NCBI GenBank assembly: GCA_047967505.1
Contig: CM106538.1
Origin: Dipteris shenzhenensis
Taxonomy: Eukaryota
DNA: 64,000 nt
Strand: one strand, 5' to 3'
Shown here: positions 16,430 to 46,379 of the stretch, one piece after another
Layout of the letters: each line of letters begins with the position of its first letter
Numbering within the stretch: the first letter of the stretch is position 1
Notes under the pieces: model-generated
Told to the model about the DNA's origin: nothing
The model's input: only the letters and a program-made list of their open reading frames with translations
The model's database searches: none
Program-made: the position numbers and the translations under genes

Positions 16430-19400
16430 TGTTAGAAATGTCACTACCCCACCTGTGAGCCCCTGATTGGAGGGGATAAGGGGGCAGGAGACTGTAGAGG
16501 GATGGGGCTGAGAGTACCTAATCTTCAGAGGCAGCATCCTGCGTGGAGTTGCGCCAGCAGACACGGGAGAGGCTGGAGCAGCATGCAGTACACGTGGGGG
16601 CCTGGCATCAGCAGCCCAAAAAGCCCACAGAGGGGGCCTATTTATAGGTTAGACCAGCCAGGTCTGGTCGGCCCAGATTCAGCCCCAAAAGGGGCCTTGA
16701 CCAGGTCGGTACAGTAGGCTGAAATCGACTGGCCAGGTCGGCCAGTTTGAGGGCTCAGGCTCTCCTATATAAAGCCCTTCATTCCTCCTTCATTCTCCAT
16801 CACCAGCACTGACCTGCCTTGCACCAGGCAAGCGCGCAGGGAGAGGAGAACACTTAGCTTTTGTTGACAGCAGCCTTGCTGTTCTCTGTGCTCATCTTTG
16901 AGCTTTTGTTTGCCCACATCTGTGGAAGAATATATCTGAGTTTTGTTGCAATCTCTCTCTATCTCTTTGAGTGTTGTTTGAGCTGCGATCGGGAGTGTGA
17001 GGAGTGAGTGATTCTATCCTCTATTTCCAACGTGGTATTAGAAAAGGAGACTCCAATCAACACTAAGGTTTGCTGCGTGGTCAAGTTCTCTTCTGCAAAT
17101 TCATTTTTCAGTTTGCTGTTTGCTATTACAGCAAGAATGGAGGACAAGGATTCTACTGTTGCCTCTTCATCCCCTTCTCTTCCTTCCTCCTCTTCCAGAT
17201 TTCTCTCATTCACCATCCCGAACTTCGGAGAGTCAGGGAAGCTAGATGGGTCGAACTACCCAATCTGGAAGGTGAAAATCCGGAGCCATTTAGTGGCTCG
17301 GAAGTTGTGGAAGTTGACAACGGGGGTCGAGGCAAAGCCGGAAGATATGCTGGACAGCAAGGGGAGGATTCTCATTCCAGTAGATGGAGAGAAGCTTGAG
17401 AATTGGGAAGACAGAGATGCCCACTCCCTAGCATTAATCATCGGGACCATGGCAGACGCTGTTTTTCCGCTCTTCCAGATGGCCGAGATGTCGTGTGGGC
17501 TATTCTGAAGGATCTGTATGAAACGGACAACACATATCGTATTCTGCTTCTTCAACATCAACTGTACAATCTGGACATGAATGAGGCGGACAATGTTCAT
17601 GACAATCTGACAAAAGTCAAGGTGGTAAGGGACCAGCTCGCGGTAGTTGGTCAGAAGGTAGACTCAAGTCATCTAGCATTGCCGACATTACACAAGCCAC
17701 CTCGCAGTTTCAAGAGTTTCGTGACTACGGTCATTGCAGGACAGAGGACCAAGCCTCTCACCTTCGAGGAGCTTGGTCCTTTACTATTGCAAGAAGAGGC
17801 TCGAGAAACGCTATTTACTCAATTGGATGAGAAGACTCTTGTGGCAAGGGAAGTTCAAAGACTCCAAGAACAACAAGAAGACCGAGGATGCATAGAAAAA
17901 GAGGCAGATGAAGTGCTTCTACTGTGAGAAGCTTGGTCATTCTGCTAAAGAGTGCTACAAGAAGAAAGTGGACCTTAAGCGAAAGGAGTCCAAGTCCAAG
18001 GAGGAGCCAAAGACTGAATCGGTAAACGTCACGACTAGCGCTCTCTTCATCCTGACTAAGTACTGCCCCGCTTATGCAATCAGTGAAGGAAGGAAGGTTT
18101 GTACGTGGACAGTGGAGCTTCAAATCACATGTCCAACAAAAAGGAGTGGTTCAAAACCATGGAAGGTATGCATCCTGATTCCAAGGTCATTGTTGCGGAT
18201 AACCGGACATGCCCTGTTAAGGGTTTTGGTAGTATTCCATTCATCACGACTGCAGGAAACGAGGAGCCGATTTTCGTTGTACTGTATGTACGGACCTTGT
18301 GTAAGAACCTTTTGTCTCTCAGTCAGATGGACAAGCACAATATGTCGGTCTTATTCGACAACGGCAAAGTCACTGTCACATCCAAGGCAAACAAAAAGGT
18401 GGTGGCTCAAGGAGGTGTGGAGTATGGGCTATATCCACTCAACGCTTTGTTGGTGCACGGGGACCATGGCAAATCCAAATTGTGGCATGAGCGGTTTGGT
18501 CACGTCAACTATGGCACTCTCGTCGAGATGCAAAAGATGGTGGATGGACTTCCACCGATCGCAGGCAATGATCGTGTTTGGAGGGCAAGCAACATAGAGA
18601 CAAGTTCCCATAGGAGGCCTCGTCACGGGCCAAGAAGCCGCTCGAGTTGGTTCACGCCGACATCTGCGGCCCAATGTCGACAAATTCATTCACAGGTTTG
18701 CTGTATTCTCTTTTATTTGTGGATGATTTCCCTCGCATGACGTGGGTATTCTGCGTGGCCAAGAAGTCTTAGGCTTATGAGAAATTCAAAGACTGGAAGG
18801 CCCAGGTAGAGAAGGAGAGCGGGGAGATAATCAAATCCTTCTGCACTGACAGAGGGGGAGAGTTCACTTCTACCGACACTTCTACCGAACCCCTCTGCCA
18901 TAGATGGTGACCTTTTGAATATGGTCTCCATCCAATGATAAGCTCGCCTGGATTCAGTAACGCACTCGGCTTCTGATCGGCGTGAGGCCAACTATGCCTA
19001 CCACTGCCATGTCTTATAGTGATTATATGGGTGTTTGTCCTCTAGAGAGAGAAGAACCTTAACGGTTCGCGGTTCACGGTATTTCTCTTTTATTTGTGGA
19101 TGATTTCCCTCGCATGACGTGGGTATTCTACCTAGCCAAGAAGTCTCAGGCTTATGAGAAATGCAAAGATTGGAAGGCCCAGGTAGAGAAGGAGAGCGGG
19201 GAGGTAATCAAAGCCTTCTGCACTGATAGAGGGGAAGAGTTCACTTCTACCGAACCGCTCTGCCATAGATGGTGACCTCTTGAATATGCTCTCCATCCAA
19301 TGCTAAGCTCTATTGGATTCAGTCACGCACTCGGCTTCTGATCGGCGTGAGGCCAACTATGCCTTCCACTGCCATGTCTTGTAGTGATTGTATGGGTGTT

Positions 19401-21060
19401 TGTCCTTTGGAGAGAGAAGAACACGGTTCGTGGTTTGCGGTATTCTCTTTTATTTGTGGATGATTTCCCTCGCATGACGTGGGTATTCTGCCTGGCCAAG
19501 AAGTCTCAGGCTTATGAGAAATTCAAAGATTGGAAGGCCCAGGTAGAGAAGGAGAGCGGGGAGGTAATCAAAGCCTTCTGCACTGACAGAGGGGGAGAGT
19601 TCACTTCTACCAAACCCCTCTGCCATAGATGGTGACCTCCTGAATATGGTCTCCATCCAATGCTAAGCTCGCCTGGATTCAATCACGCACCTGGCTTCTG
19701 ATCTCGACGTGAGACCAACTATGCCTACCATTGCCATGTCTTGTAGTGATTGTATGGGTGTTTGTCCTTTGGAGAGAGAAGAACCTTAACGGCTTGGGGA
19801 GTCGAGGGTGCTGCCATGTGAGCCCTTCTGGCCAGACCAATGGTCGCCACCAAGGAAAAACAACAAAGGAACAAGGGCGAAGCCCTTCAGAACCTCTGCC
19901 GACCCAAAGGAGTAGGTAGGCTGTGGGGTGCACCTTGATGACCTAAAGCAACCACCAGAAGCTGTCCCAAAAAATGTGAAAACTGAGAGTGAAAGCTCCA
20001 TGCAGAAGGCCTTGAACCGGAACTCCTTGTAGAGACTGCATGGGAGGGGGTTGCTTGCGCATAAAACTTCCACATGTGCATGAGCCTTCTTACAGAGGGC
20101 TTGGACCCTTGCAAGGATAGTCCCGGGGGTAGCTCGACGCTGCACATTGCTGCACCACACCCGGGAGATGCCCCAAGCTCCATCGCACTTGGGGCAGGCC
20201 CCAGAGGAGCACGCTGCTGTTGCTGTGCAGCTATGCGCTGTGCCACCAAGCCAGACGAGGAGAGCGGAGACCCGCGCACCTGCAAGGGGGAACCTACTAT
20301 GCGCTGCCCAGTAGGGAGCGAAGAGCCACACATGAAAAGGGGTGTGCCCAAAAGGTATGTGCATGAAGAGGCGTGTACTCCTTGTGAAGGGTGTAACCTG
20401 CTGGATAGATGATGGCCTTGACATTTTCGAGTTGATGAGATGGTGACTTAGTGGATTAACCTGTCGGTGGTAACTAGATTACATGAGGAAGCTGGTCAGC
20501 TGATGCTGCATGGTCGAGGTCCATGTACGGTGTTACAAGGGTACGGAGGTGGACCTAGAGGAGGAGGAGCTGTAGAGTCGAGGATCACAGATTGAGGAGG
20601 CCTTTGAATCTGCATTGGTGGTGTTATTGGCCCAAAGTGGGTTGGTGAAAGGGGGTGTTGGAATCAAGGGGTCGCCTCCCCAGGTGAGCCCCTGCATGAG
20701 GACCACATAGAGGAGATGACAAGCAGCATGCGATTGGAACAAAGGGGCTGGAATTGAGCTGCCATGTGGGCAGCAAGCTGGCTGCCACATGGGCAGCAGA
20801 CATGAGTCCTTGGATTGATTATGGGAAGCCACATGGGCTACTCAAGCCAGCAACATTGGCTGGCTGTTTGCCCTGACTTAGGGCTGGCAATGGGCCAATG
20901 GGCTGGGGACAGACGAGCACAAATGGGCAAAGATCAGGGCCTATTTATACGGAAGAAAGGACAGCAAGTCGGCTGTCTGTCTGGGTCTGTTTACAGACCT
21001 GATGCAGGTCGGCCTGCCATGTGTCAGGTCATTGGAGTGATTAATTTTCTTTACAGGCTA
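16430..21060 (+). mobile_element. Related copia element B (deletion derivative): LTR 16430-17032, PBS-like 17033, gag-PR-partial IN 17137-~18880, no RT/RNase H, PPT 20647-20655, partial 3' LTR from 20656
   Basis: KLDGSNYPIWKVKI, CFYCEKLGHSAKEC, YVDSGASNHMS, LWHERFGHVN, VDDFPRMTWV...TDRGGEF; gaaaggggg then TGTTGGAA; its LTRs share the cacctgtgagccc-type motif with LTR A. Confidence 0.8.
18700..19795 (+). repeat. Triplicated ~360-375 bp unit (integrase core fragment + non-coding segment)
   Basis: ttctcttttatttgtggatgatttccctcgcatgacgtggg starts at ~18706, ~19083 and ~19443. Confidence 0.95.
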
Positions 21061-21832: not shown

Positions 21833-22059
21833 CAGCATACAGAGCCAATTTTGACGCCCGATGGTCTGCTGCAGGTATTGGTGCAATTCGCCTTTGGACT
21901 TTTCTTGTCCAGGGCGCTCCCCCTCAGCCAAGTTAGCGCTTGCTGGCCAAACGCGGGGCATGCATTGGCAGGATCTATATCTATCGATGATTTTTTTGTG
22001 GTACATCTGAGTACATTCTATGCAGATCTTAAGTGCTTGTTATCTACGTGCATTCGCAA

Positions 22060-22232
22060 TGAGTGAGTAGTTGTCTCAAGTTAAGTTGTGATATCTTGGG
22101 GAAGTCTTCCACTGCGGGGAGTTGCCTGCACAGAATCGAAGTTCTTTCAATCGACATGCATGGACACTGAGTGAGTTGTTTTCTCAAGTTAAGTTGTGTG
22201 ATCTTGGGGAAGTCTTCCTGTGTGGGGAGTTG
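22060..22232. repeat. Short direct duplication (~65 bp x2, period ~108 bp)
   Basis: tgagtgagt.gtt.tctcaagttaagttgtg...atcttgggg(a)agtcttcc...ggggagttg repeated. Confidence 0.8.
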
Positions 22233-22343
22233 GCTGTAGCAAGCAAGCTCTCTTTCTTTGACATGGTATTTGGGCCTTGTGTGGTAGTGGATGCATGGTC
22301 TTGTATTCTCTGAGATTTTCATGTTTGACCCTTTTCTATTCAG

Positions 22344-22479
22344 GTAAAGGAAATTGAGCAAGAATCTTCAGGGGCATATGGATATAAAAAAGGTGTGGTT
22401 GCAAAGGGGGGGCCCACTTCAGGTTTGGCTCAAAGGTTGAAGGTTTTACGCGACTCCAGTAGTAAAAATGATCAAGAAG
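22344..22479 (+). CDS. Host gene exon 3 (VKEIEQESSGAYGYKKGVVAKGGPTSGLAQRLKVLRDSSSKNDQE)
   Basis: Acceptor cttttctattcAG|GTA, donor GAAG|GTACTT; joins exon 2 in phase 0 to give PVELIKRVKEIEQE. Confidence 0.85.
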
Positions 22480-23339
22480 GTACTTTTATGCTTTTGTGTA
22501 TGCATTTACATATACCTTTTTCTCCTCACAACTTGTATTTATATAAATCTAGCTCTATTCTCATATGTAGCACATCTCCATGAAAGTGCAACATTTGAGC
22601 CTTTTCAAAGAAAAGAATGTCTCTTGTTTGTCCCTATTTTTACACAAAATGCCGTTTTCATTTGTTTCCTAGCTTATATTTGTTTGTGACGTACAATTTA
22701 AAGATTACTCTAGTATCAAGACGGTTTAACTCTTCAATGCTTCGTACAATCTTTCCCTCATGTTTTGATGTTGTTTCTTCATTTTTGGCTTGAAATGTTC
22801 TCATCTTGCAAAGGACATACTCAAGAAGATCCTTCTAAAAGAAATTTTTAAGTCAATGGGTTTTGAATACCAAAGGGAAGATGGATTTGTGATGATATCA
22901 TCCTTATCCTCTTGCTTATTGTTCTGAGTTGTGGTGATTGAAACATAAGATAAGTGCCCAATCTAGGGTAGTGTAGCGGACATGCAAATTCTTTGAATTT
23001 TCGTCCAAGTGGTGATCAGTTGTTCAAGTATATCGAAGTATCTTATGCGGTTGCAGAAGCCCCAACAGTTAAAAATTCTCAACTTTAGAATAATGAAATC
23101 TGAATTTGTACGATTGGATATTTTCAAGTCTTACAAAGGTATAGTATAGCCCTTAAAGGCATAAAAAGTGTAGTGTGAAACTATCAGGGAAGCAATCCTA
23201 AAGTTGTTAAGTTATGTACTATTGGGACAGGTGTTGGTGTCTAAAAATGATTTGTAATGGGCAAGAAGAGTACACACCACTCTCACTAACTGTGCCTGTG
23301 CTATAACTACTAGGCGTGGAAGCATGGAATGCTAGCTTT

Positions 23340-23510
23340 GAAAGAAAGAAGTTTATTAAAGTCTTTGGAAGATTGACGGGTCTATGAGATTATAAGAAAC
23401 CTGATACAATACGCTGAAAGGGTGGAGCTACTAGACGAGCATCATCACCATGCTAAATGCTAGGTACTACATAGTTACAACATCATCATCATCATCATCA
23501 TATCAATTAG
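23340..23510 (-). mobile_element. Short 3'-end fragment of the RTE-X-like LINE family
   Basis: Homologous to 23954-24200; minus strand ends AATAAAC(TTTC)n and carries a (GAT)n run. Confidence 0.75.
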
Positions 23511-23953
23511 ATCGAGTGTCAAGTGTGCTTAGATGCATCAAAGGCTCCAAGAGGGGAGTGAGATATCATGGTGGCCCCGGTGGTGGGCGGCTTTGCAAGA
23601 GCAGTGTAGAAGTGGGTCAAAATTGCCTTCAAAGACCTCGAAGTGTTGCCAAAAATGCTTGCAGGTGGTCGGCTCTACTGCAGGAGCCTAGGAATCCTAG
23701 GTTCAGCGATGAAGAGCTTCAAAACAGCTTCAGGGAACCACTCCTGCAGGCGCTTGTAGACCAGGGTACCGACAGTAGATAAAAGGCGCCTAGGGGACTC
23801 GAAACAGCCCAGGAATGACACTATTGGAGGCGGTTATGGAGGCAGCAAGCTAGTTAGGGTTTAGGGTTTGTTGGAGAAGATGATGATGTGGCAGGGCATG
23901 CTAGGGTAGGACTAACCTGGCTTTGATACCATGTTAGAAACATGGTGGTGAGA
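23511..23953 (-). mobile_element. LTR-retrotransposon leader fragment (LTR end + tRNA-Met PBS + 5' UTR)
   Basis: Minus strand ...tttctaaCA|TGGTATCAAAGCC (PBS at 23919-23931). Confidence 0.65.
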
Positions 23954-26900
23954 GAAAGAACGAAAGAAAGAAAGAAAGTTTATTAAAGTCTTCGGAAGAC
24001 CGATAGGTCTATGAGACTGTGAAAATTCTGATACAACGAGCTGTGGTAGTGGAGCTACTAAACGAGCATCCATACCAATGCAAAATGCAAAATGCAAAAA
24101 ATGCAAAAATGCAGAATGACAGTACTAAGTCCTAAGTACAACATAGTCATGTTGATGGTAGACTATATATCAATCTCAGCATCATCATCAATATCATCAT
24201 CATCCCTAGCAACAGCAAGATATCAGGATGGATGAGGAGGCGGAGGCATGAAGTCGGCAATAGAGTGCTGTCGGCCACTCAGAGGTGCGGTCCTGGCACA
24301 TCTCCTGGTTGTAGCGCTGCGTCTAACCAAGGCTATTGTGACCCCAGTCGGTCGGGCTCCGACTCTAAACAAGGAGGGGATGTCTCCAAGTGTGATTTGT
24401 GTGTCGACCCTTTGTCTGAGCTGTCGGGTCACGGGCTCCGTGTCACGGTCATGTCGAGGCCTCGTCTCGTTGGGGTCCATGTGATCTAGCTGAAAGAACT
24501 CCGTGATAGAGCTTTGAGAGGGATCAACCAAGGAAGAAGTCTGCTCCTGTCTCCGCGCTCAAAGTATCCTCTCGCGGTGTCTAAGTGCCTCATGAATGAA
24601 ACCTGCCAAACACCGCTGGTCTGGGTAGGAGAGGAAACGGGCTAAAATCCCATAACTATCCCTGAAGAGGCAGTGGAAACATCCTCGGATCTCATAGTAC
24701 ACAGGACACCTGAAGATGAAATGCTCCTCTGTCTCAACCTCCTGTATGTCACGCAGTGTGTATATGCGTCGCTCCATGGGTAGTCGCTCTGCTCTGCCGC
24801 TCTCGATGCAAAGTCTGTGTGAAGAGACCGGGAACTGCCCAAGAGAGATCCTCAGCGAGTGGGGTAGGTGAATCTGTGTGTATCCTGGTGGGTCAATGAA
24901 ACCCTCTGCTGTGATATGTAAGAAGTGATCTCTGTAGAAGCTAAGCTTCACTGGGAGTTCACTCGGTTCCAACCAGGTCTGAAAAGTGTGTAACTGTAGT
25001 AGATCCTCACAGATAACCTGGTTGACCTCGTGTGATAAGAGGGGAGAGAACGGAGCATCCATGCTATACTGGAAGGGAGGTAGTCTATCCATGTGGAGCC
25101 CCAGTTGCTCAAACCATCTCTTTGTACGTGCATACCATCACCTTTGATCTCCTCCTGCTGCAAGTGCCATAGAAGAGGATAGAGCTATCCATGGTAGCCT
25201 GCTACGCCCTGAGGTATAATCTTATATTCCCTAACTCGGTACAGATATGTGATGACTTGAAATGCAGCATCTAGATGTAAAGGGGGTAACCCAAACTCAG
25301 CCTGAATGATCTGGTGAGGAACGGATGACTTACCACGAATCATCCATGATAACATGAGAACCTGTAGCCGCTCCACACGGGCCCACTCTGTATCCGACAA
25401 GTCTGGCCCCCAACAAGGGCTGCCGTACATCCCTGTTGGGCAACCCCTTGGTGCGTGGATCTTGAAAGTGTGAGCGGAAGCACTGCCTCTCTAGCCTGGC
25501 CAATGAGGCATACCCTCTACTCAAGCGTGCCTTCATCGCGGGTCTCATAGTGAAGCTTGGTCCGGAGAAGATAACCCCAGATAAGTGTATGATGAAACTA
25601 TCTCAACAGATGACTCCGCAAATGTGAACTGCTCCTGACGCGTGATGGCTCGAGATATATTGAAGATCATGACCTTGGTTTTACCCAGGTTGACCTTCAA
25701 ATCATGAGACTCACAAAAGGACTGTAGTGCGTCTTGGTGTCTCTGAAGCCCCTCTGTTGATGAAGACAAGAGAGCCACATCATCTGCATAGAGCAAAATC
25801 TGGATCAGCGTGCCCGCAAGAGAGCAACCTACACCCCCCTGTGTCTGCATCACTATCTCAAGCTCGTCAAGGTAGAGGCCAAACAAGGTAGGCGACAAAG
25901 GACAGCCTTGTTTGACCCCGATGGTACTCATGATCTCGTCTGTCCACCTGGATCCTGCTCGAACTCTGCTAGAAACTCTCTCGTAAAGTGCCATGACAGC
26001 CCAAATGATCTCCTGGTCATATATGAGGCGGGCTCTCAGGACCGTGTCAAATGCCTTGCGGAAATCCACAAAGCAACAATAAACCCTCTGCTTCCGTGAC
26101 CTCGCCTCCTTGATGATACATCTGAGCGTGAGAATGTGGTTCATGGTTCCATGATCACGCCGAAATCCGGCCTGTCTTGTTGCTCTAAGTCCTCGACACT
26201 CTGCAAGTTTGCTAACCTTGGAGTCAAGTACTGATGCATAAATCTTGGACATGACATGTCCAATCATAGTGGTCCTGTAGTTCTCCGGGCTCATGGGATC
26301 CCTTGCCTTGTGGATGGGTGAGATAGTGTTAATGGTTCGAGTGTGTGGAAATCCCAAACAAACCGCTTCATTAAAAAGCTTTGCTAAGATCGGGGCTAGG
26401 AGGTTAATCCTATATGCAATGAACTCAGTGCATAGCCCCTCATGATCCTTCGCTCGGCCATTATGAAGTTTCATTATGGCATCCTTTACCCCTCCTCTAG
26501 TGAAGAGGGTGCAGGATGTGGGACGTGGCATGTGTAAGAGGTTAGGGATTGGCTGATTTGGGATGTCATAAAGTGTGTGTGCATAATCAAACCAGATCTG
26601 GGTGTCAGTGAGTGGCGGAGGGGACCGTCCTTCTAGAAATCTCCGCCAGAAGTCCTTAGAGTTGTTACTAAACAAAATGTTCAGTAGCTCCTCCTCGTTT
26701 CGATGAACGAAGTCTAGTTTCTTTCTCCGTACCAGTCCACGGTATTCACGTAGCGTATCTGGTGCGCTTGGAAGACTGTTTTTGGTTTCGAATCTGAGTT
26801 GACGGCGTAAGGCCTTACACTCATCATCGTACCAACTATTACAGGGTACAGTTCCAAGGGGTGGTGGGTGGGTGGTGTGGGAAAAAGCATGAATGACAGC

Positions 26901-28630: not shown

Positions 28631-28816
28631 GCTCTCAAAGTCCAGGAGTAGAACTGCCAGCCTCTGCCCGCTCTGCATAGCCCACTCAGTGGCTTCCCAA
28701 AAGGAAAAGATATTGTCAAATATGCTCCTGCCATGCACAAAGCCTGTCTGAGTATCATGGATGAGGTCTGGAAGAAGGGGCTGCAATCGGATGCTGATTG
28801 ATTTGGAAATAGGCAT
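28631..28816 (-). mobile_element. Short L1-clade RT fragment abutting the 5' end of the RTE-X-like LINE
   Basis: ISIRLQPLLPDLIHDTQTGFVHGRSIFDNIFSFWEATEWAMQSGQRLAVLLLDFE. Confidence 0.8.
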
Positions 28817-30449: not shown

Positions 30450-33400
30450 CATGGCAGCACCCTTGACTCTCCAAGCCGTTAAGGTTCTTTTCTCTCCAAT
30501 GGACAAATATCAGGTTAGGAATACAGTCTAGTCACTCCAGGATAGAGCTGTGGTGGGCATTATCGTTGGACTCACTCCCATGAGAGTCTGGTGTGTGATC
30601 TAGGCGAATCTAGCACTGGATGGTGACCACATCTAGGAGGTCACCAATTGAGTTCCCCGGACACCACTCAGGACCTTGTGGAGCAAAGCCCCATTTTCCT
30701 TGGCCCTCACGTTGTGTACTTCATCCCCTGTTATCATGGGTTCACAGTCAAGGATGTGGACTCGACAAATCATGTGCCTTGCTTCTTGGTGATGCTCCGC
30801 TTCTCGAGGCTCCCAAGGGACTTCCCCACCAGTTTACACAGCCTCGGTCGTTGTAGATGATGGAGTGCCTTGAATCAGGATGATTGTAGAGATCCTAGCG
30901 TCCCTTCTTGAAAAGTTTTCCTTGAGACCTTGAACGGGGGCGAGTTCTGTCAGAGGATTGATGCCTCCAGACTTCCAGGATAGTGCGTCCGATGTAGGCA
31001 GATGGGTCATTTGGCACGGGCTTGCCCTAGGAGGTAGGGACGGATTGCACCTCTTCAGGCTAGACAGAAATAGCAGAAGCAGACAGATCTCAGCGTCTCA
31101 TTAGGCCGCAGCTAGAAGGAGTCCGGGATCCCTTGGCTAGAGCCCTCCGAGGGGCATGGACTAGGGTAGATAAGAAGCCTAGCAAGAAGGCCACAAAGGA
31201 CCATAGGAGTCTTACTAGAATTAGACAGTGGGTAGCAACAACATCCTCTCCTCAGAGGGAGAGGCTAGATGGGTCCTCTTCTCAGAGGGAGAGGCGAGAT
31301 GGCTTCCCCTCAGGCCATCCCCGGACTTCCTAGGGTGAGGTATTCTTCTACGTCCCAACGGACCCACAAGTGGCAGAGGCCCATCGTTCTCAGTCTTCTG
31401 CACCACGTTAGGCCTCAGGGGAGGCCGCAACTCTGTCTCCTCGTGTTCCCCTAGTCCTCTCCTGCTTTGCCTAGATCCTCTCCGTCCTCCCCTTCTCCTC
31501 TGATCTTCTCTGCATCCTTGTGTTGCAGTCACCCTCACTACGTGCCCCTTGCTTGCCTTGTCTTTGGCTCACCCTTCTTCTTCCCCACTGCAACGGTTCC
31601 CCCTTCCTCCTCTTCTCGCCTCCCGCTCTCGAAGTCTCTGCCTCCTAAAACGCCTAAGCCTTTGGGCAAAGGCAAGGTAGAGACTTCCTTCGCTTAGCCT
31701 CAGGCTTCTTTTGTGCAGTCAAAGCATGGCCTTCTCCTTGCTCAGGACTCATCTTCTATGGAACATGTGGAGGTAGGTTCGTTTGGGAGAGACTAAAATG
31801 AAATCGTTTAGACTTCAGAAGCAGTTGTAGCTTGAATGAAGAGATTTGGACTATTTTTTGATTAGCCTTCTCCTTTAGTGCTAGCCTTCGTCATGGCTGA
31901 GTTTGCCCTTCCCTCCGAAGTGTTGACAGAAACTCAGTACGAAGACTTTGTATAAATGGATGCTCAATTATGTGTGGGTGTGTGGATTTGTATGTGTGAG
32001 AGCATACTTTTATACTATGGTCTACACCCACTGTTGGGCGCTGATGACGTTAGTGGGGATATCATAGTAGCTAGTCCTTGCTATGCGTGATGGAGTTTAT
32101 GGTTTTCAATCTTATGAGTGACCCTCGTGAGATTGAGACTGCTCTATGTTGTGTTTTTAGGGATGAGTTCGGGATTCATCTAGGTATATGCGGAGGCAGG
32201 CATAGATCCCTAGCACATTTTCCCTGAATGATGTAGTGGGCCCAGAAGGTAGGCATAGATCCCAACATGCCTCTGATGCGTTGTTGCACGGATGAGGAAT
32301 ATTTTCCTTACCTCCTCAAGATTTGGAACATGGTGAGCTAGAACATGCACGAGTTTCTTGATAGTGCACGACAACAGCCATAGCATCTGATACTCCACTA
32401 GGAGTTCTAGAGGCTAGTTGCAGGAGTGGCATTGGATTTTCTACTGATTCAGAAGCATATGTTCTCACCATCGGATATCAGTCGTCGCCATTCCTTGCTT
32501 TTGGGGAGGGACTTAGAGGTGTGGTCCCTGGCTTAGGCCGGAGTGGCGAGGTAGTGGCCCCAAACGTTTTTGATCAGGGTCCCTGCGTGTAGGCGACCCC
32601 CCTGTCTTTTGGAGGCGGTTGATAGAGGGCATGCTAAACGTTGACTCTTGGATTGCTCGAGGACAAGCAAGGGGAGTTTCTTTCTCATAGGTGTCCGCAA
32701 TGGAGAGGAGTACGTGCGAGTTGTTCATTTCATGATCAACGGTCATGATCTATGGAGAGAGGCGGAGTTCACCAGGCTCCCTGGCAGCCTTCTCTTTTCT
32801 TTTGGCCACCGAAGGCATGATGGCCTTCTAGAGCGCCTTGACAGGTTTTACATGGGGGATTGGACGATGTACAGAGTGGGTTCCATGGTGGTATTTTGGC
32901 AATCACAACGATATCAGATCACTCCTAGATTGTGATGCACTTAGAGCAGCCTTGACATGGACTCTCTCAGAAGGGGGTCTGCATTTAGATGCTCTACTTC
33001 AGGAGGAGGAGGTATAGTAGGACATGTCTACGATTTGGGAGCAGCCAGGGGGTGCTTTCGAGGATGGATGGGCTACTTGGATTGGCAGACACGATACACG
33101 ATTCAGAGGAGTTGTGAGGGGCTCCATTCCCTGGCTCTTGGTTGGAGGCATGCTCTACAAGAGTGCGAGAGAGAGCCCCGAGAAGGGATTCGACATCTAT
33201 AGAGTGCCCTAGGGAGCATGATTTGGACTCTCAGTGTCTCGACGGTTGGTACGAGAGTGCGCGGCTTGATCTTTATTGCATAGAGGTCCGATGAGCCGAG
33301 TTCTCTTATCACTCTTCTCGAGCCAGATGGGTACAACAACGAGACAAGACGACCATACAGTTCTTGTAGACCACTAGGCCACGATGAGCCGAGACTCAGC

Positions 33401-35633: not shown

Positions 35634-37038
35634 CCAGACGGTGCTCATTCGCATCAATGATCGAATCTTAAATGTAAGTATTTAAAGGCACTGACATATC
35701 AGTTTCATGTCTCGCTGTTATTAGTCTAAATTCTCTTGGTGAATTTGGTGACTTTGGGGCAGCATTCCAGAGTGCCTGCTGAGAGCACCTTTGCAAAGAA
35801 GTTTCAAATTTATGAGCGTATTTGCATAATTGAAAACAAGTGTACTATGGAGCTCTTACTGAAGTTTCAGGGATTAACTCTCATCTATGGTATAGGGCAA
35901 GTGTTTTACCTAAGAGCACACCATTGAATGGTAAATACCCCTATTGTCACAGTTTAAAGCATTTTAGTGGTTATTTCTAATTTCATTTAACAAAAGGCTA
36001 TTATCTTGACAAAATACTGAAATGTTCTGCTCATTTCAAGTTTCCAAGATCTCTGATTATTGTCCATGATACATTAGGTCTACTGGCTGTGCAATGAAGG
36101 ACTCGAATGAATATTCAAAGCCTTTATAATATTCTGCATGACTTTTGTCCTGGATTGTCTGCGGACTCTTGTTTTATACTCCGCACATTCTTTCACTTCC
36201 ACACAATCTTCAAGGTACCATAATTGGAAGAAACTGATGGATCAAGAATAATGTCTGAGAGAAGTTTCCTGAATTTTGTCCATCATCATTCATAGCTTCC
36301 TACTGGATGCAGAATGGAGGAGTAGGCTTCCTGTTCATGCTCTTGCCGTACTCTCCATTTTGGCCGCCTGTTATGTCATTTCACATCCTTTAAAACAGGT
36401 GATGAGGATTAATAAAGTTAACTGAGAGGGTCAAAAGGTTTGAAGGCATTTATTGTTCCCTTGTAGCATATTCCAAGAGGTCAAGGTATCTCTGCAAGTG
36501 TGGTTTCCTGTAGAAACTTTTAACAGTAGAATTTGAAAAGCAGTCAGTGCCGTATTTTAATTATATCACTGTCAGTGTATGGAAATTTTACAAGCACAGA
36601 AAGATTCTCAAACTCTGCTGAGGTTGACGGATGTCACGATCTCTAACGTCTAGCCTTGTCTTCCTCTCTCGTTCTTTGGTGTTAGCCTGAAAAAGCTGCG
36701 GCCTGCTGGTATTGTGATAATTCTTTCTATCTTAAATGGTGCGTTGCCCTATCAGCTAGATTTAGATTTAGATGCTCGTTGGGGAGAGACTAAAATGAAA
36801 ATGTTTAGACTTCACAAGTAGTGTAGCTTGAATGAAGAGATTTTGGACTACCTTTTGATTAGCCTTTTCCTTTAGTGCTAGCCTTCATCATGGCTGAGTC
36901 TGCCCTTCACCTCCGGAGTGCCGACAGAAACTCAGTACGAAGACTTTGTATAAATGGATGCTCAAGTATGTGTGGGTGTGTGGATTTGTATGTGTGAGAG
37001 CATATTTTTATACTATGGTCTACACCCACTGTTGGGCG

Positions 37039-40000
37039 TGTTGAGATATCAAGCTCTATCCCCGACATATCTCCTGGATGACTATCATTTATGTCACCGC
37101 CTATGTTAGTTGTACTCGTGGTGTAGTTAGACTACCACGTATGTTTTGGTTTGGGTTCACATATGAACCACGTATTCTAGGGTTTGACATATAGGGTATT
37201 TCCCTCTTCTATTGTAATTGTCGTGTGCAAAAGTGAAGAAAGGCTTCACCCTCCAACCTTGTGTCCTCTCTCTTTTGTGTGTTGTGAAGAAAGCTGAACT
37301 TGAGTCTCCTATCTCTCTCCCTTCTTCTTTACATGGTATCAGAGCCTTGTTCGTGGTAAGGAGCTCAAGAAAGCAAGCCAAGTTTGTGGTGTCCTGGTAA
37401 GAGGACCAGTGTTGCTTTCCTATTTCGAGTTTGGGAGCAAATCTCTGCAGGTAGCACAGCCAGAAGTGTCTGAGTGCACTGCTTCAGATTGAGAGGCCCT
37501 TCGCGGTGTGGCGAGAGCGCGCGGCCAGTCGGTGGAAAGGTGCCACAGAAATTGCATCGTATGCTTGTGTGCAGAGATATTGGGAGTTGCAGATTCATGC
37601 CTGTTGCCTGTTGATGCAAAATCGTCACTAGGAAGTGACTGTGTGGTGAAATACCACTTTCGTCAGTGTTGCAGATCTGCCCCTGTGAGGCTTTTTGCAG
37701 AAGTTTTGCTATTTACCCTTGTGAGGCATTTGCTGTGTTTACAGGTTGCTGTTGCAATTCGTGATTTGTAAAATGTCTGAGAATCTGTCTACCATTGTCA
37801 GTGAGAAGCTTGACAAGAACAACTTCCAAGCATGGAAGTTCCAGGATGACAAACTTCCTTATGGGAAAGGGAGTTTGGGATTACATCAGTGGTGAAACTA
37901 CAGAACCAGTTTTGGGTGCTGCTCCCACTCCTGCTGAATTGAAGGCCTTTAAAGAATGACATGAAAAAGCCAGAAAATGCTTGTATTGGCTGTCTGTTAG
38001 CATTTCAGATTCTATGATTGTGCATATACAGGATGTAGAGACACCTAAGGAGGCATGGGATACATTGGTGAAGCTGTATAGCACAAATACCAAAGCACGA
38101 AAGATGCAGCTAAAGCAGGAGTTGCACAATGTGCAAAGGAAAAATATGAATATAAATGAGTATTCCTTGAAGGTGAAAGGCCTTGCAGATTCTCTTGCCT
38201 CCATTGGAGCACCTGTTGATGATGAGGACTTAGTGTCCGTGACCTTGAATGGTCTTGGGAAAGATTATGCACAGTTTCGGACATCCATTGGAGTCCGTGA
38301 AACATTTCTTGATTTTCAGGAACTTATTGCTCTCTTGCTGAGTGAAGAGCAAAGGAATGGTGGTTCAGCCACCTCAACTTCTCAAGAGACTACTTTCTAC
38401 TCGAATACAGGTAGAGGCAGAGGTAGAGGAAGAGGCCGTTTTGGTGGCCGTGCAGGAAATCAGAACCAACAGCAACAACAGGAAAACCAGTCCTATGGAG
38501 GAGGACGTGGTAGTTCTAGAGGCAGGGGGAGCCAAAGAGGCCGTGGTTCATGGCAAAGGAACCAGCAAGTAAATAGTAGCACAGAATGCTATTATTGTGG
38601 AAAGCCTGGACACAAGAAGAATACATGCTATAAAAAGCAGAATGACATCAAAAGTGGGAAGTTGCAGCAAAGCAACTATGCATCATCAAGTGGGCATGGT
38701 GACGACAGAAATGAGCACCTTTTTGTGATGCAGCATATGGTTAACTCCATGTCAGGAGATGCTGCAGCTTGCAATGATGTTTGGTATGTTGATTCAGGTG
38801 CCTCTAACCACATGACCAGTCATGGTGAGTGGTTTCATGATGTTAGAAATTTGGATAAGCCAGGTTATGTTGAAACAGGTTATGATACTGTGTACCCAAT
38901 TACGCAGGTTGGTAAAGTGCCATTGGCTATGCAGGATGGCAAAACGAAGTACTTGCCAGATGTACTTCATGTTCCAAAAATCACTAAGAACCTGGTTTCA
39001 GTTGGCCAGATGGTTGAGCAAGGTCTGCAGGTTAGATTTAATCCTGATGGATGCTTTGTTGAGGACTTGAAAAATAAGTGCCGCTTGGTTGCGAAAGGCA
39101 ACAAAAATGGCAGAATGTTCACCTTGGATGTTGATATGCCTGAGGTGAAAGCTGCTATGTTTGCGCATGGGAGAGGTGTCATTGCAGATATTGAGATATG
39201 GCACAAGCGCATTGGGCACGTGAATATACAAAGGCTGAAATCTATGCAAACGAAAAACATTGTTGCAGGTTTGCCTAAATTCAGAGTTGAGGGAATGCAA
39301 AAGGTATGTGAAGCATGCCAAATGGGTAAGCAGGCCAGACATGCATTTCCCAAAAATGCTAAGGTGAGCAGAAGACCTTTGGAAGTGATCCATTCAGATG
39401 TTTGGACAACCAAAGCTGCTTCTATTGGTGGATGTCATTATTATGTGACGTTTATTGATGACTACACTAGGAAGGTGTGGATTTATTTTATGAAGCACAA
39501 AAGTGAAGTGTTCAGCCATTTCAAGGCTTTTAAGGCCATGGTTGAAAAAGAGAAAGGTGTGCATATTAAAGTGCTAAGATCTGATGGAGGGGGAGAGTAC
39601 TTTTCAGAAGAATTTTGTGAATATCTGAAAGAACAGGGAATTCAAAGGAAGTACTCATGCAAGTCTACCCCTCAGCAGAATGGGGTTGCAGAAAGGAGGA
39701 ACATGGATATTGCAGAAGTAGGACGGGCGATCCTAAATGAGAAAAACATGCCTGATTATTTTTGGGCTGAAGCAGTAGCAACTGCTGTTTATATTATGAA
39801 CAGAACTCCCACTGCAGCTGTCCATGGCATGACGCCTGAAGAAATGTATACAGGCCAAAAACCAGATATTTCTCACTTGAAGGCATTTGGTTGCATAGCG
39901 TATGTTCATGTTCCTGATGAGAAGAGAACCAAGCTGGATCCAAAGGCAGAAAAATGCATCTTTATTGGATATGCTCAGCACCAGAAAGGGTATCGCTGTT

Positions 40001-42382
40001 ATAACTCTTCCACTCGCAAAATGCAAGTGAGCAGAGATGTTGTTTTTGATGAAATGAGCAGCTGGTATGCACCAACTGTTATGGTAGGAGATGCAGATGC
40101 AGGAAATGGGAATGCTGCAATAAATGCAGAGCAGCAATCTCAAGTCTTGAGTGGACCCAGAGAGTCCTCTACTAGTGGATCTAATGCATGGACAGGGAGA
40201 TTGAGATCTAGTGAATCGTCACATGGCAGTCCTGATAGTGTTGTGCAGGTATCACATAAGGGAAAAGAAAAAGTGGACCATACTCCAGTGTTTGATGTGT
40301 CTGCTGGTAGCTCTCATGTTGATGGAGAGTCAAGCGGCTCTGAAATGAGCCTTGATGAGGAACTTGGGATTCCTTTTGTTGTTACACCTGGTGCAAGGAA
40401 AAGCAAGCATGATTTAAAGACTCCTGCAACTGATCCAGTTGTACGGAGGTCCACTCGTATTAAGTATCCAGTTGACAGGCTAAGATATGATGGGTATACA
40501 GCACATCACTATGCTTATATGGTCAAGGTTCTAGAGGAGCTTGAGCCCACATGTTTTGAGGATGCAGCAGGGCATAAAAATTGGGAAGCAGCTATGGATG
40601 AAGAGATGGCTGCCTTGGATGCAAACCACACTTGGGATTTGATGTCTTTGCCTCATGATAAGAAGGCTATTGGCTGCAAGTGGGTTTACAAAGTAAAGCA
40701 CAATGCTGATGGGTCTGTTAGCAGGTACAAGGCAAGATTGGTTGCCAAAGGTTTTGCGCAGACATATGGAATTGACTATGAGGAAACTTTCAGCCCAGTT
40801 GCAAGGATGGCAACCGTGAGAGCAGTAATTGCTATGGCTGCTGCAAAGGGATGGTCTTTGCATCAGATGGATGTGAAAAATGCCTTCTTGCATGGTGATT
40901 TGCAGGAAGAGGTTTATATGATGCAGCCAGAGGGTTATGAGGATAATGCACACCCCGATTTTGTATGCAGGTTGTGCAAAGCCTTGTATGGCTTAAAACA
41001 GGCGCCGAGGGCATGGTCAGACAAGATAGGGCAATATCTTGTCACTATTGGATTTCAGATTTTCAATTCAGATTTTTCACTTTATGTGAAAAGGACAAAC
41101 AAAGGGATTGTGCTTATCGTCATCTATGTTGATGACTTGATTATTACAGGTGATAGTGATGCAGACATTAATGAAGTGAAGCTGCTGTTGAAGCATAAAT
41201 TTGAGATGAAGGATTTGGGAGAGCTGCGTTACTTCTTGGGCATTGAGGTTATTAGATCCCCGAGTGGGATATGGCTGTTGCAAAGGCAATACGGTTTGGA
41301 CATGCTGTCCAAATATGGGATGATAGGCTGTAAGCCTATTTCTGTTCCATTGGAGCAGAATGTGAAGCTCAATGCAGAGACAGGTGAGCTTCTTGAAGAT
41401 ATTACTATGTACAGGCGCATAGTAGGTAGCTTGATTTACATGACTATAACCAGACCAGATTTGAGCTATGCTGTGGGGCTGGTGAGTCAGTTTATGCAGG
41501 CACCGAGGAAGCCACATTTGGATGCGGCTAGGCGCATACTCCGGTATGTGAAGTCCACATTGCATTATGGACTGCTTTATGAAGCTGGGTGTGCATTACA
41601 GGTATATGGATACACAGATGCTGACTGGGCTGGTAGTGTCTCAGACAGGAGATCTACTAGTGGTTTTATGTTTTCCCTTGGGAGTGGTGCCATCAGTTGG
41701 AGCAGCAAGAAGCAGCCAACAGTTGCCTTGTCGAGCACAGAGGCTGAGTACAGGGGTGCAGCAATGGCTGCATGTGAGGTAGCTTGGTTACGGAAGCTAC
41801 TTGCAGATATGGGACACTCAGTTCATGCAGCAGTTGTCATTCATTGTGACAACATTAGCAGCATCATGCTTGCTAATAACCGAGTTTATCATGCTAGAAC
41901 GAAGCACATTGAGGTGCATTATCACTTTGTGAGAGAGAAGGTTCTAGCTGGTGAGATTGATCTTGTCTATGTCAGCACTGAGGAGCAGGTGGCTGATATC
42001 TTTACGAAGGCATTGGGTACCGAGAAGCTTCGCAGATTTAGGAGCTTGCTTGGTGTACGTGAGATGGATTTGAGCTTGAGGGGGAGTGTTGATATATCAA
42101 GCTCTATCCCCGACATATCTCCTGGATGACTATCATTTATGTCACCGCCTATGTTAGTTGTACTCGTGGTGTAGTTAGACTACCACGTATGTTTTGGTTT
42201 GGGTTCACATATGAACCACGTATTCTAGGGTTTGACATATAGGGTATTTCCCTCTTCTATTGTAATTGTTGTTGTGTGCAAAAGTGAAGAAAGGCTTCAC
42301 CCTCCAACCTTGTGTCCTCTCTTTTGTGTGTTGTGAAGAAAGCTGAACTTGAGTCTCCTATCTCTCTCCCTTCTTCTTTACA
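37039..42382 (+). mobile_element. Full-length young Ty1/copia LTR retrotransposon
   Basis: 5' LTR 37039-37333 and 3' LTR 42087-42382 (TG...CA, only a few differences); PBS tggtatcagagcc 37334-37346; PPT gagggggag 42078-42086; TSD GGGCG/GGGCA. Confidence 0.97.
37773..42129 (+). pseudogene. Copia gag-pol polyprotein (gag, CCHC, PR, IN, RT, RNase H), disrupted near its N terminus
   Basis: ATG at 37773 (MSENLSTIVSEKLDKNNFQAWKF), +1 frameshift at ~37841 and a TGA (Trp codon) at ~37957, then a 1382-aa open frame with CYYCGKPGHKKNTC, WYVDSGASNH, DD..E core, YVDD and ADIFTK. Confidence 0.93.
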
Positions 42383-45300
42383 GGGCACTGATGACGTCAG
42401 TGGGGATGTCATAGTAGCTAGTCCTTGCTATGCATGATGGAGTTTATGGTTTTCAACCTTGTGAGTGACTATCATGAGATTGAAACTGCATTATGTTGTG
42501 TTTTTGTGTTTTTAGAGGATGAGTTTGGGAATGTTCCTGGATTCATCTAGGTATATGCTTCTGCCGTATTAGCGGACATGCAAATTTCACCTCGTGAAGT
42601 TTTCGTCCAAGTTGCGGTCTGCTGGTATTGTGATAATTCTTTCTATCTTAAATGGTGCGTTGCCCTATCAGCTAGATTTAGATTTAGATGCTCGTTAGGG
42701 AGAGACTAAAATGAAAATGTTTAGACTTCACAAGCAGTTGTAGCTTGAATGAAGAGATTTTGGACTACCTTTTGATTAGCCTTCTCCTTTAGTGCTAGCC
42801 TTCATTTTGAATCTGCCCTTCATCTCCGGAGTGCCGACAGAAACTCAGTACGAAGACTTTGTATAAATGGATGCTCAAGTATGTGTGGGTGTGTGGATTT
42901 TTGTGTGTGAGCATATTTTTATACTATGGTCTACACCCACTGTTGGGCGCTGATGACGTCAGTGGGGATGTCATAGTAGCTAGTCCTTGCTATGCATGAT
43001 GGAGTTTATGGTTTTCAACCTTGTGAGTGACTATCATGAGATTGAAACCGCACTATGTTGTGTTTTTAGAGGATGAGTTTGGGAATGTTCCTGGATTCAT
43101 CTAGGTATATGCTTCTGCCGTATTAGCGGACATGCAAATTTCACCTCGTGAAGTTTTCGTCCAAGTTGCAGCCTGCTGGTATTGTGATAATTCTTTCTAT
43201 CTTAAATGATGCGTTGCCCTATCAGCTAGATTTAGATTTAGATGCTCGTTGGGGGGAGGGGTGGTTTGAGAGCTTTAGCACAACATCTTAGATGGGGTAG
43301 TTCTTGGAAAACACTCCTCCACCCTTGCTTAGCTAATTGCAAGCAAAAAACTTCAAAACTATATTAAAATAAGAGGTCCCGGGAGGCTCCCCATCCCAGT
43401 TTTGTCCTAACAATGTGTACTTAACCATGTAGGTTTTAAAATTCCATTACCAATTCAACTCTCCATAGATTCCACACACAATAGTTGGATTAGAAAGAGG
43501 TCTCTTTTTTTTTTTTTTTGCTCTTCATGCTTTTGGAGGGATTGCTCTCTCCCCCCAAAAGCATGCTTTTTTGGGGGGATTGCTTCTTTCCCCCCAAAAG
43601 CCTATTTTTGGATTGCTTCTTCCCCTTCTTTGCGTGATTTCTTGCCTTCTTCCTCCGCCGTCCTCGTCCTCCTCCTTCGCTTCCTTCCGTCCTTTCATCC
43701 GTGCCACTCCGTTAAGGCCTCCTACGCTGCTGCTGTTTCGGCGCCCTCCTCGTCATCTCTTCCTCCGCTGTGCTCTTTCCCCTGCCGTCCTCGTCCTCAG
43801 TTTCGGTTGCGCTCTTTCCCTCTACCGTCCTCGTCCTTAGTTTTGGCCTGCACTACCACAGTTTCCTCTACCATCCTCGTCCTCAGTTTCGGCTGCGCTA
43901 CCACAGTTCCGGCTGGCTGCGCTACCACAGTTCCCTCTGTCATCCTCGTCATCAGTTTCGTCTACGCTACCATAGTTTCGGTTGCCTTCGCCACTCATTT
44001 CCTCTGCAGCACAGTTTCAGCGCCGCTCTGCTTTTCCTCCTCCGTAGCATAGTTTCAGTGCCGCTCTACTTTTCCTCCGCACATGTTTTCTTCACAGTTA
44101 TTCAGTGGCAGGTTCGTAGCCCTCAGCAGGCCCATTCTTCTTCGCCAGCGTGACTGTCAGTGAGGCTTCTGTGTCGTCAACAACAGTCTGAAGCTTCTCC
44201 TTTTTCGAGTTAATCTCACGGAACCCCTCTTCACGAAATCCCCTTTGGACAAAATCCCCTCAGCTCCTACGATTGCTTGAAATCCAAAGAGCAGAAGCTC
44301 ACAAACAACAATGGCTACTCAATCATCCAAGTAAGAAAATGAAAGAAATCGAAAGTGTACCTAATTCATGCATGTTCTCCACTTTCTCCATTTCGGAACA
44401 CCACGATTTGAAACAAAGAGTCTTGTAAAAGTAGGAATCTCAAAATGTGATTTGAAAGTAGGGTCTTAAGTATATGATTTGACTTTCATATCTTCAAATT
44501 TGAAATTTGAATTCTGTATCTAAGATTAATGAAAATGTTTAGACTTCACAAGCAGTTGTAGCTTGAATGAAGAGATTTTGGACTACCTTTTGATTAGCCT
44601 TCTCCTTTAGTGTTAGCCTTCATCATGGCTGAGTTTGCCCTTCACCTCTGGAGTGCCGACAGAAACTCAGTACGAAGACTTCGTATAAATGGATGCTCAA
44701 GTATGTGTGGGTGTGTGGATTTGTATGTGTGAGAGCATATTTTTATACTATGGTCTACACCCACTGTTGGGCGTTGATGACGTCAGTGGGGATGTCATAG
44801 TAGCTAGTCCTTGCTATGCATGATGGAGTTTATGGTTTTCAACCTTGTGAGTGACTATCATGAGATTGAAACTGCACTATGTTGTGTTTTTAGAGGATGA
44901 GTTTGGGGATGTTCCTGGATTCATCTAGGTATATGCTTCTGCCGTATTAGCGGACATGCAAATTTCATCTCTCGTGAAGTTTTCGTCCAAGTTGCGGCCT
45001 GCTGGTATTGTGATAGTTCTTTCTATCTTAAATGGTGCGTTGCCCTATCAGCTAGATTTAGATTTAGATGCTCGTTAGGGAGAGACTAAAATGAAAATGT
45101 TTAGACTTCACAAGCAGTTGTAGCTTGAATGAAGAGATTTTGGACTACCTTTTGATTAGCCTTCTCCTTTAGTGCTAGCCTTCATCATGGCTGAGTCTGC
45201 CCTTCACCTCCGGAGTGCCGACAGAAATTCAGTACGAAGACTTTGTATAAATGGATGCTCAAGTATGTGTGGGTGTGTGGATTTGTATGTGTGAGAGCAT

Positions 45301-46379
45301 ATTTTTATACTATGGTCTACACCCACTGTTGGGTGCTGATGACGTCAGTGGGGATGTCATAGTAGCTAGTCCTTGCTATGCATGATGGAGTTTATGGTTT
45401 TCAACCTTGTGAGTGACTATCATGAGATTGAAACTGCACTATGTTGTGTTTTTAGAGGATGAGTTTGGGAATGTTCCTGGATTCATCTAGGTAGATATTA
45501 GCCTCAAAAAGCTGTGTAGTAGCTCTTTTGAAGTTCCAGAATCTTTTGTGAGCGGAGCAAAGTTGCCAAGGAGGATTTTCTTTACAAAGTGATGTGAAAA
45601 GCAGATGCAAATAGTATCTCGTTATCACATGGGATGCCTTGATCCAATTTCAAACACAATTCTCTAACAGGCTGGCATAATGAAGTATTTTTTAAAAAGG
45701 CAGGCCCTTTTTTTGTGCCAGAGGGACTTCTTTTTTGTCATTCGAAAGATATCTTTTGCCATCTTGGTTTTCACATGCACAATTTATTGGGTGTACATGT
45801 GGATGATTAGCTCGCTGGTAGGCATTGGATGTTGTTAGTACCTGCCATTGTCGAAGTCCCACTAGGATATACTGTGGGTGGTTGTGATTGTTTGCATACT
45901 AGGTAAAATGCCATTTTTGGGCAAGTGGCTCTACTCCTTACTCCTTATTCTGCTTGCTTGCCCCTTCCTCTTTCTCTCCCACTTCATTTGGTTCCCCCTC
46001 TCCACTCTAGGCTGTTGACTGCCTTAAGGCTTGTTATTGGGCTTTTACTATTTTATCATATCGGGGTAAGCTTCCTTTGCTTCTTGATCAATACTGGGGG
46101 TTGATGTGCTTGGTATTGTTTCAATATGTTGAGGGATACACAAGGGTGTTTTATCTCTTGAGATCTTCACTTTTTGACTGAGAGTTTTTGCCAAGCTTAT
46201 TATTTTTTCCTCCTTTTTATTACAATTATCAATTGTGGCATCACAATTTGTGTTGTAACTATTTGATTTTCAATGAAAATGATTCCAAGGGGTACATAAA
46301 TTTTACTTCAGTGGGCCATTGAGGTTTGGCTCTAATTGGATAATCCTTGCATGCATGCCCAACTCCGTAGTCTCTACAC

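Follow-up and report, generated by a model that had tools for sequence, protein, structure and literature searches.

Features of the window

The DNA analysed here (hereafter, the window) is a stretch of 64,000 nucleotides from contig CM106538.1 of the Dipteris shenzhenensis assembly GCA_047967505.1. The region of interest, positions 22915–23010, consists of non-coding, AT-richer DNA and starts 435 nt downstream of an exon-like segment (22345–22480) with AG and GT borders. It had originally been predicted to contain a distant relative of the junction between the units of a tandem element further along the window. The region and the sequence immediately downstream of it contain the following features:

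22936..22971, plus strand: GATTGAAAC ... ATCTAGGGTAG, similar in motifs to the large unit's 3' end (not beyond chance in shuffles)
22974..23010, plus strand: junction ("tail") module; a shortened hairpin is enclosed by exact blocks of 17 and 13 nt (exact matches, profile, covariance model)
22978..23006, plus strand: hairpin with a GGAC/GUCC outer stem, an AUGC/UC internal loop, an AAAUUC/GAAUUU inner stem and a UUU loop (fold, alignment)
23011..23071, plus strand: may be weakly homologous to the opening ~60 nt of the 562-bp unit (end-anchored alignment)
23137..23143, plus strand: AGGTATA box, likely the 3' end of a short unit (position; contigs of runs X2 and X3)

The tandem element and a truncated sister copy are made up as follows:

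31778..32191, plus strand: large-family copy with a truncated 5' end and the common 3' end
36682..36698, no strand: left 17-bp target-site duplication, TTAGCCTGAAAAAGCTG
36699..45497, plus strand: large element, four head-to-tail units of ~504 nt and three 58-nt linkers
42517..42556, plus strand: 14-bp hairpin ending CAUCU, then AGGTATAT, the large family's fixed 3' end (centroid fold; contig stops)
42557..42614, plus strand: linker 1, 58 nt, carrying the module
about 43111–43168 and about 44935–44994, plus strand: equivalent linkers
45498..45514, no strand: right 17-bp target-site duplication, 16/17 identical to the left one

The units of the large element repeat every 554–562 bp, and the array as a whole is enclosed by the 17-bp direct repeat TTAGCCT[G/C]AAAAAGCTG. 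The predicted position of the hairpin, in a linker of ~60 nt just beyond the fixed 3' end, proved accurate: the linker measures 58 nt (e.g., 42557–42614). It is found at 3/3 internal junctions; neither end of the array has it, nor does the truncated copy at its 3' end. The last bases of the array, CTAGGTAGATA, correspond to CTAGGTATATG within the array, while its first bases, CGGCCTGCTGG, correspond to those just after each linker. There is just one full-length 5' end (36699), and so its place right after a linker may be chance.

The array is interrupted twice: by a copia element (37039–42382) and by an insertion of ~1.27 kb (about 43252–44527). The former is an apparently intact Ty1/copia element inserted in the first unit of the array, with near-identical LTRs of about 300 bp, a 5-bp duplication (GGGCG/GGGCA), and a 1389-aa polyprotein ORF (37960–42129) that matches gag, the protease region, integrase and RVT_2.

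Only two large-family insertions are present in the window. The second, the truncated copy, is without the first part of the unit; it is flanked by a 9-bp target duplication, GGAGG[T/C]AGG (31769–31777 and 32192–32200), and ends in CTAGGTATATGC, within 2 nt of the position at which the array ends. All matches to the unit in a BLAST search of the window (10/10) lie on the plus strand, and the units end in GGTATAT(GC), with no repeat tail. Target-primed reverse transcription, as carried out by non-LTR and Penelope-like elements, characteristically leaves target duplications of variable length, shortened 5' ends and a shared 3' end that lacks poly(A). Given its 17-bp duplication, head-to-tail units, 5'-truncated copy and common 3' end, the large element behaves like a non-coding, target-primed retroposon.

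Other repeats occupy neighbouring parts of the window. A LINE-like element lies on the minus strand (23331–28100), with an RVT_1 ORF (25545–27239). Its 3' end bears a (CTTT)n-type tail near 23960, and behind it, in head-to-tail order, stands another 3' end, 5'-truncated, that extends to about 23331. This LINE-like region includes a direct repeat (23349–23450 and 23976–24077) with 77% identity. At 18703–19792, a degraded copia-type integrase region contains three repeats of a 360-bp unit (90% matches).

The junction module in the intron copy

The 17-nt block TAGCGGACATGCAAATT, which starts with TAGCGG, occurs exactly at 22974–22990 of the intron copy, and the 13-nt block TTTTCGTCCAAGT occurs exactly at 22998–23010, both on the plus strand. 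The 17/17 and 13/13 identities to the tandem unit that had been read from the sequence are thus correct. Each block has four copies in the 64-kb window, all on the plus strand, a count that was reached in 0/100 shuffles. The other three sites (42570, 43124 and 44948) are the three linkers of element 36699–45497. A profile built from the three junctions at 42–45 kb recovers 22974–23022 (E 9.1e-5), and no further site in the window outside the large family. The covariance-model scan suggested along with the original prediction was run within the window: the intron copy (22972–23012) scores 58 bits, the large-family copies 72.6–79.4 bits, and the best unrelated site 11.9 bits (E 0.34).

Identity falls abruptly at the edges of the module: the blocks on either side of the loop are 100% identical, whereas the sequence beyond is about 58% identical or does not align. 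In the BLAST alignment, the blocks are identical at 30/30 positions, compared with 37/64 aligned columns outside the module. Directly after the module, TGGTGATCAG (23010–23019) resembles the copia primer-binding site TGGTATCAGAGC seen at ~37336; at the corresponding place the large family has only TGGTAT, and the likeness to a primer site is probably chance.

The hairpin and its conservation

The shorter loop of the intron copy was expected still to pair, and it does: AAATTC-TTT-GAATTT forms a 6-bp inner stem within the GGAC/GUCC outer stem. The hairpin has a predicted energy of -6.3 kcal/mol, a value equalled or bettered by 94/200 shuffles. The large-family module consists of GGAC, AUGC, a 9-bp stem with a 3- or 5-nt loop, UC and GUCC, with energies of -13.1 and -12.1 kcal/mol (z about -2); the stem lengths of the two families therefore differ by 3 pairs. 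When the 13 modelled pairs are laid on the alignment, 97% of cells are paired, as opposed to 19–54% with the partner slid. Two changes distinguish the intron hairpin from that of the large family: one compensatory pair (U-A to C-G) and one U-G to U-A. As a test of covariation these are statistically empty, with n=3 distinct sequences and 141/500 shuffles equally good. The strand preference of the fold is inconsistent, with the large family favouring the plus strand (z -2.1 vs -0.5) and the 22.9-kb copy the minus strand (0.0 vs -1.8). The large unit's strong 14-bp hairpin is absent from the fold at 22.9 kb, and hence what is common to the families is the AGGTATA box and the downstream module.

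The structure of the junctions raises the question of whether the linker acts as a promoter. The linker could hold the transcription start of the next unit, in the manner of a pseudo-LTR, with RNA beginning just behind it, such that only multimers would be self-transcribing and conservation of the module would serve transcription. The sole full-length 5' end (36699) corresponds to a position directly after the linker, and an A/T-rich AAATTT lies, by our own count, 33 nt upstream of that start. In PMC8557442, the pseudo-LTR of Penelope and Chlamys-3 is described as holding the transcription start. However, there is only one such 5' end; a better TATA-like sequence, TATAAAT, lies in mid-unit; and the 3-pair difference in stem length would shift the spacing of a promoter between the families. 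We regard a promoter as an unlikely explanation of the module; as a second role, it would be compatible with the signal proposed below.

Sequence surrounding the intron copy

According to the original prediction, the same motifs appear in the same order over a longer distance, in otherwise unrelated sequence. Upstream of the module, GATTGAAAC occurs at 22936–22944 (five copies in the window) and ATCTAGG at 22961–22967. A collinear chain of the two is equalled or exceeded in 375/5000 dinucleotide shuffles, and the ordered pair can therefore not be counted as evidence; likewise, when the 174 nt upstream are locally aligned with the 3' part of the unit, 111/1000 shuffles reach the same score. The placing of GATTGAAAC in a stem carries no weight, given that the 101-nt fold has a z of +0.77 and that 154/200 shuffles fold at least as well.

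Downstream, local alignment of 190 nt with the unit is equalled in score by 736/1000 shuffles. When the 62 nt after the module are aligned with the start of the unit from a fixed end, only 7/2000 shuffles are as good; the same end-anchored test gives 410/2000 at 40 nt and 188/2000 at 100 nt. This is a hint, and no more, of ancestry shared beyond the module over ~60 nt downstream. To call the surroundings unrelated is therefore slightly too strong.

No convincing target duplication was found around the 22.9-kb copy. The sole candidate is an 11-mer with 1 mismatch, of which ~0.6 would be expected by chance (our own estimate). A self-similarity search of 22300–22973 against 22974–23330 gave nothing below E 0.25.

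Public-run contigs and a probable second family

Contigs of three small public runs (X1, X2 and X3) were aligned to positions 22701–42700 at 80% likeness. All three runs cover parts of 22000–24000, in small shares (0.06–0.07). One X2 contig and one X3 contig run from 23143, the end of AGGTATA, through 14 letters to 22974, the start of TAGCGG. The large family is arranged likewise, with AGGTATA (42549–42555), 14 nt, and TAGCGG (42570); in our own comparison, 7/14 spacer letters are identical between the families. One X2 contig diverges after 23136, continuing with GGTATAT and then unrelated letters, and two X3 contigs start matching at 23096. Three X3 contigs end their match at 42556, the last T of GGTATAT in the large family.

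These contigs suggest that 22974–23143 is a unit of its own, which elsewhere occurs in head-to-tail order, joined by the module. The intron copy is thus probably a member of a second, shorter family that has only the junction module in common with the large one. The support for this family consists of a few contigs of coded runs at 80% likeness, which we count against our best explanation. At 22.9 kb, the module is preceded by something other than the 3' end of the short unit itself, and so the locus is not a simple dimer. The intron copy is probably inert, a dead insertion of the shorter family, and most likely neutral for the host gene.

The raised depth of bin 22701–23367 was considered as a sign of copy number and rejected, since large-family contigs lying on the module can explain it.

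Several other features of the contigs deserve mention. An 89-nt GT..AG intron (35674–35762), located after the host gene's apparent stop codon, is skipped in contigs of all three runs. The runs therefore probably contain cDNA (the kind of run is itself a guess), and the host gene would have a spliced 3' UTR. An X1 contig of 783 nt lies on 36077–36698 with 6 differences and ends its match exactly at the array's left edge, with 158 letters over; it may represent an empty site, with the array absent in that organism. Six X1 contigs have loose ends before 36944, whose noisy consensus (agreement 0.56) approximates the reverse complement of the following unit sequence; these could reflect head-to-head copies elsewhere or an assembly artefact. 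Finally, an 8-nt duplication at 42489–42504 (GTGTTTTT twice), in the first junction-proximal unit, is missing from eight X1 contigs and one X3 contig.

The contigs bear on two further explanations of the intron copy. In the first, the short family lately took the module from large-family RNA, by template switching or gene conversion, and the identity would be a sign of youth rather than of selection. An abrupt drop from 100% identity is what such a patch would leave behind, and template jumping by non-LTR reverse transcriptases is known. Yet the shortened stem with its paired changes is not a plain copy, and the same 14-nt spacing and AGGTATA box recur at a separate head-to-tail junction, in runs that bear the label of another organism. 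A recent patch is, in our judgement, improbable.

In the second, the intron copy is a decayed, internally deleted fragment of the 562-bp family, functionless at any level, in which the core has survived by chance. The resemblance of the motif order to the large unit's 3' end, the possible weak homology over 62 nt downstream, and the finding that 22481–23335 has no further copy within the window would all sit well with decay. Set against these are (i) the 30/30 matches in the blocks, which at a flank identity of 58% would arise by chance with a probability of ~1e-7 (our own arithmetic), and (ii) the contigs, which show 22974–23143 as its own unit, head to tail. We consider chance survival unlikely.

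Searches for relatives and for a processing signal

No Rfam family reached its gathering score anywhere in the window; within 22700–23300 and 42100–45700, the only matches were weak (E 0.22 or higher, far below gathering score). An ARAGORN scan of the window found no tRNA. Scans for bacterial-type promoters and terminators gave 0 and 0, with models that are not relevant to a eukaryote.

The original prediction had allowed for self-cleavage, or another processing signal, near ATCTAGG. Such a signal would make the linker a segment that is excised from multimeric RNA, with cuts near ATCTAGG and 3' of the hairpin. The array does abut the linker sequence at either end, and Penelope-like elements and retrozymes are reported to carry hammerheads near their junctions (PMC4209133; bioRxiv 10.64898/2026.07.22.740005). 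Against this, the two regions contain no ribozyme family at E up to 10; by our own reading, the unit's CTGATGA and GAAAC lie about 100 nt apart, with no helix II; and three uncut linkers persist within the array, which efficient processing would not leave. With no ribozyme or other Rfam family assignable down to E 10 in these regions, this part of the prediction is not supported, and excision of the linker is highly improbable.

A similarly poor case can be made for a SINE-like origin, by capture of a small-RNA gene of the host or of a polymerase III head. TAGCGGA loosely resembles the consensus A box of tRNA genes, and TTCGTCC the B box. Neither ARAGORN nor Rfam supports a captured gene of this kind, and T-runs, which stop polymerase III, occur within the unit. 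We think such an origin very unlikely indeed.

Searches beyond the window yielded no true relative. The pattern GGACATGCAAATT-N(3-25)-TTTTCGTCC is present at nine metagenome loci, which fall into three sequence families and have nothing in common beyond the pattern; they were rejected as chance matches. With the covariance model these loci score 16.7–21.3 bits, compared with 58–79 for the window copies. Among them, L002, L004, L005 and L007–L009 form a repeat family in which GGACATGCAAATT-N5-TTTTCGTCC stands beside an 11-nt inverted repeat; this looks like a eukaryotic dispersed repeat that is unrelated to the window element. The pattern gave 0 matches in viral contigs. In prokaryote genomes, a 16-mer search returned 91 scattered bacterial and archaeal matches, below a rough chance estimate, and was set aside as uninformative. 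Three 13–14-letter strings from the module and the 3' end had no occurrence in a full-text literature search. Four such strings of 10–11 letters were compared with the curated Penelope-like consensus file of PMC8557442, which contains one chance 10-mer, in a coding region.

Proposed role of the module

The work above confirms the core of the original observation, whose periphery was overstated. Two families share (i) a unit end with AGGTATA, (ii) a 14-nt spacer, and (iii) a 37–47-nt hairpin module that stands between units and is omitted at insertion ends. Since the module recurs at the equivalent position of another type of unit, a cis signal common to related families accounts for it better than a random fragment would. 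With regard to the conserved functional core that had been postulated, self-cleavage is not supported; what persists is a module that is kept far better than its surroundings and holds its position in both families. That related families have a conserved signal at their junctions is plausible and partly supported, and the 37-base intron sequence most likely marks a second, shorter family that uses the same copying signal.

Our preferred reading, to which we assign a probability of about one half, is that the module is a family-level cis signal located just 3' of the cDNA start, and that the intron copy derives from a second, much shorter family within the group of non-coding, target-primed retroposons to which the tandem element belongs. 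The following sequence of events would account for the arrangement: (i) a multi-unit RNA is transcribed; (ii) a reverse transcriptase binds the hairpin module; (iii) cDNA synthesis starts internally, at AGGTATAT, ~14 nt 5' of the module on the RNA; (iv) the reverse transcriptase copies back through one or more units; (v) the signal is retained by head-to-tail copies only; and (vi) selection on source copies fixes the module, while unit bodies drift or are replaced. The sequences themselves show that the families have the module and its spacing in common, and that insertions have target duplications, can be truncated at 5', and end alike at 3'. We infer a function at the RNA level, binding by a reverse transcriptase, and the kind of enzyme involved.

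Descriptions of Penelope-like elements (PLEs) fit a signal of this sort, positioned immediately 3' of where the cDNA begins and hence missing from insertion ends. With the purified protein of one such element (PAc of Anolis), reverse transcription begins inside the RNA, at tail-defining sites, and initiation requires RNA 3' of the start site (PMC11167929).

A broader, and doubtful, extension of our preferred reading is that land plants harbour hammerhead-less, obligately multimeric retroposons, in which the initiation hairpin is not part of the mobilised unit but follows the cDNA start at a distance of 14 nt, and unit bodies are exchangeable. The driver would be either a Penelope-like enzyme new to the lineage, or a LINE enzyme with Penelope-like internal initiation. 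If this were true, only head-to-tail copies would breed, and unrelated bodies would swap behind a constant module. If our preferred reading holds, a short signal outside the copied unit would decide which plant retroposon copies multiply, and Penelope-type internal initiation, so far described for one lizard element in vitro, would extend to non-coding elements of plants. For annotation, the combination of AGGTATA, 14 nt and the hairpin module could serve as a compact marker with which to find related families and the partner enzyme.

Comparison with known systems

Tandem units and a hairpin near a CTAG-containing end are also seen in non-autonomous Helitron and Helentron elements that carry tandem arrays. 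Helitrons generate no target duplication, and their hairpin lies upstream of a CTRR end. The element described here differs on both counts: it has a 17-bp duplication, and its hairpin lies downstream (3') of the end.

A closer likeness exists to stringent LINE/SINE pairs such as UnaL2/UnaSINE1, which share a 3' stem-loop that is recognised by the LINE enzyme. Here, too, the elements are non-coding, with variable target duplications and 5' truncation; the 3' end is defined and lacks poly(A), and the recognition signal is probably a conserved hairpin. In UnaL2/UnaSINE1, however, the hairpin lies inside the element and is present in every copy, whereas here it lies beyond the 3' end and survives in multimers only. 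Two further differences from SINEs are that there is no polymerase III head here (no tRNA and no Rfam family) and that, within the window, the units have neither the 3' tail of a partner LINE nor a poly(A) or microsatellite end. The sole LINE of the window (RVT_1 ORF 25545–27239, minus strand) has no match to the junction profile or to the covariance model.

Retrozymes are likewise small, non-coding retroelements; those of the animal type are tandem and, according to bioRxiv 10.64898/2026.07.22.740005, are thought to be derived from PLEs. Unlike retrozymes and TRIMs, the elements in the window have no hammerhead and no LTR ends, and their duplications measure 17 and 9 bp rather than 4–5 bp.

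The fullest set of parallels is with PLEs, for which PMC8557442 describes partial tandems, 5' truncation and an optional tail of 30–40 bp. It also describes non-autonomous PLEs (Chlamys-type, e.g., MRC1) that are non-coding and form multicopy head-to-tail insertions. The same paper places hammerheads in the pseudo-LTR of canonical PLE clades, with most Naiad/Chlamys elements missing them, and so far reports land-plant PLEs from conifers and spike mosses, with a few protein hits in mosses (PMC8557442). PLEs and the large element have in common (i) a head-to-tail, multicopy insertion within one target duplication (here, four units and three linkers between 17-bp duplications), (ii) 5' truncation with a common 3' end (here, the copy at 31778–32191 and the X3 contigs that stop at 42556), and perhaps (iii) a short segment that is found at junctions but not at all insertion ends, together with a proposed cDNA start inside the RNA that depends on RNA lying 3' of it. 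There are also differences. The junction segment measures 58 nt here, compared with a tail of 30–40, and none of the 3 insertion ends seen carries it; a hammerhead is lacking; and an inverted 5'-truncated copy, frequent but not obligatory in PLEs, is absent, with all 10 unit matches on the plus strand. Nor was a partner gene seen: 23 ORFs of at least 150 aa (of 31 listed) were scanned in the window without a match to GIY-YIG, and the window contains neither a reverse transcriptase with GIY-YIG nor another element sharing this 3' end. We count this, too, against our best explanation. Given the lack of a partner gene and hammerhead, the longer segment that is not at the ends, and the lack of an inverted copy, membership of the Penelope group cannot be claimed, and a LINE partner with similar behaviour is equally open. 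The arrangement in the window represents a known kind of retroposon behaviour, rather than a new system.
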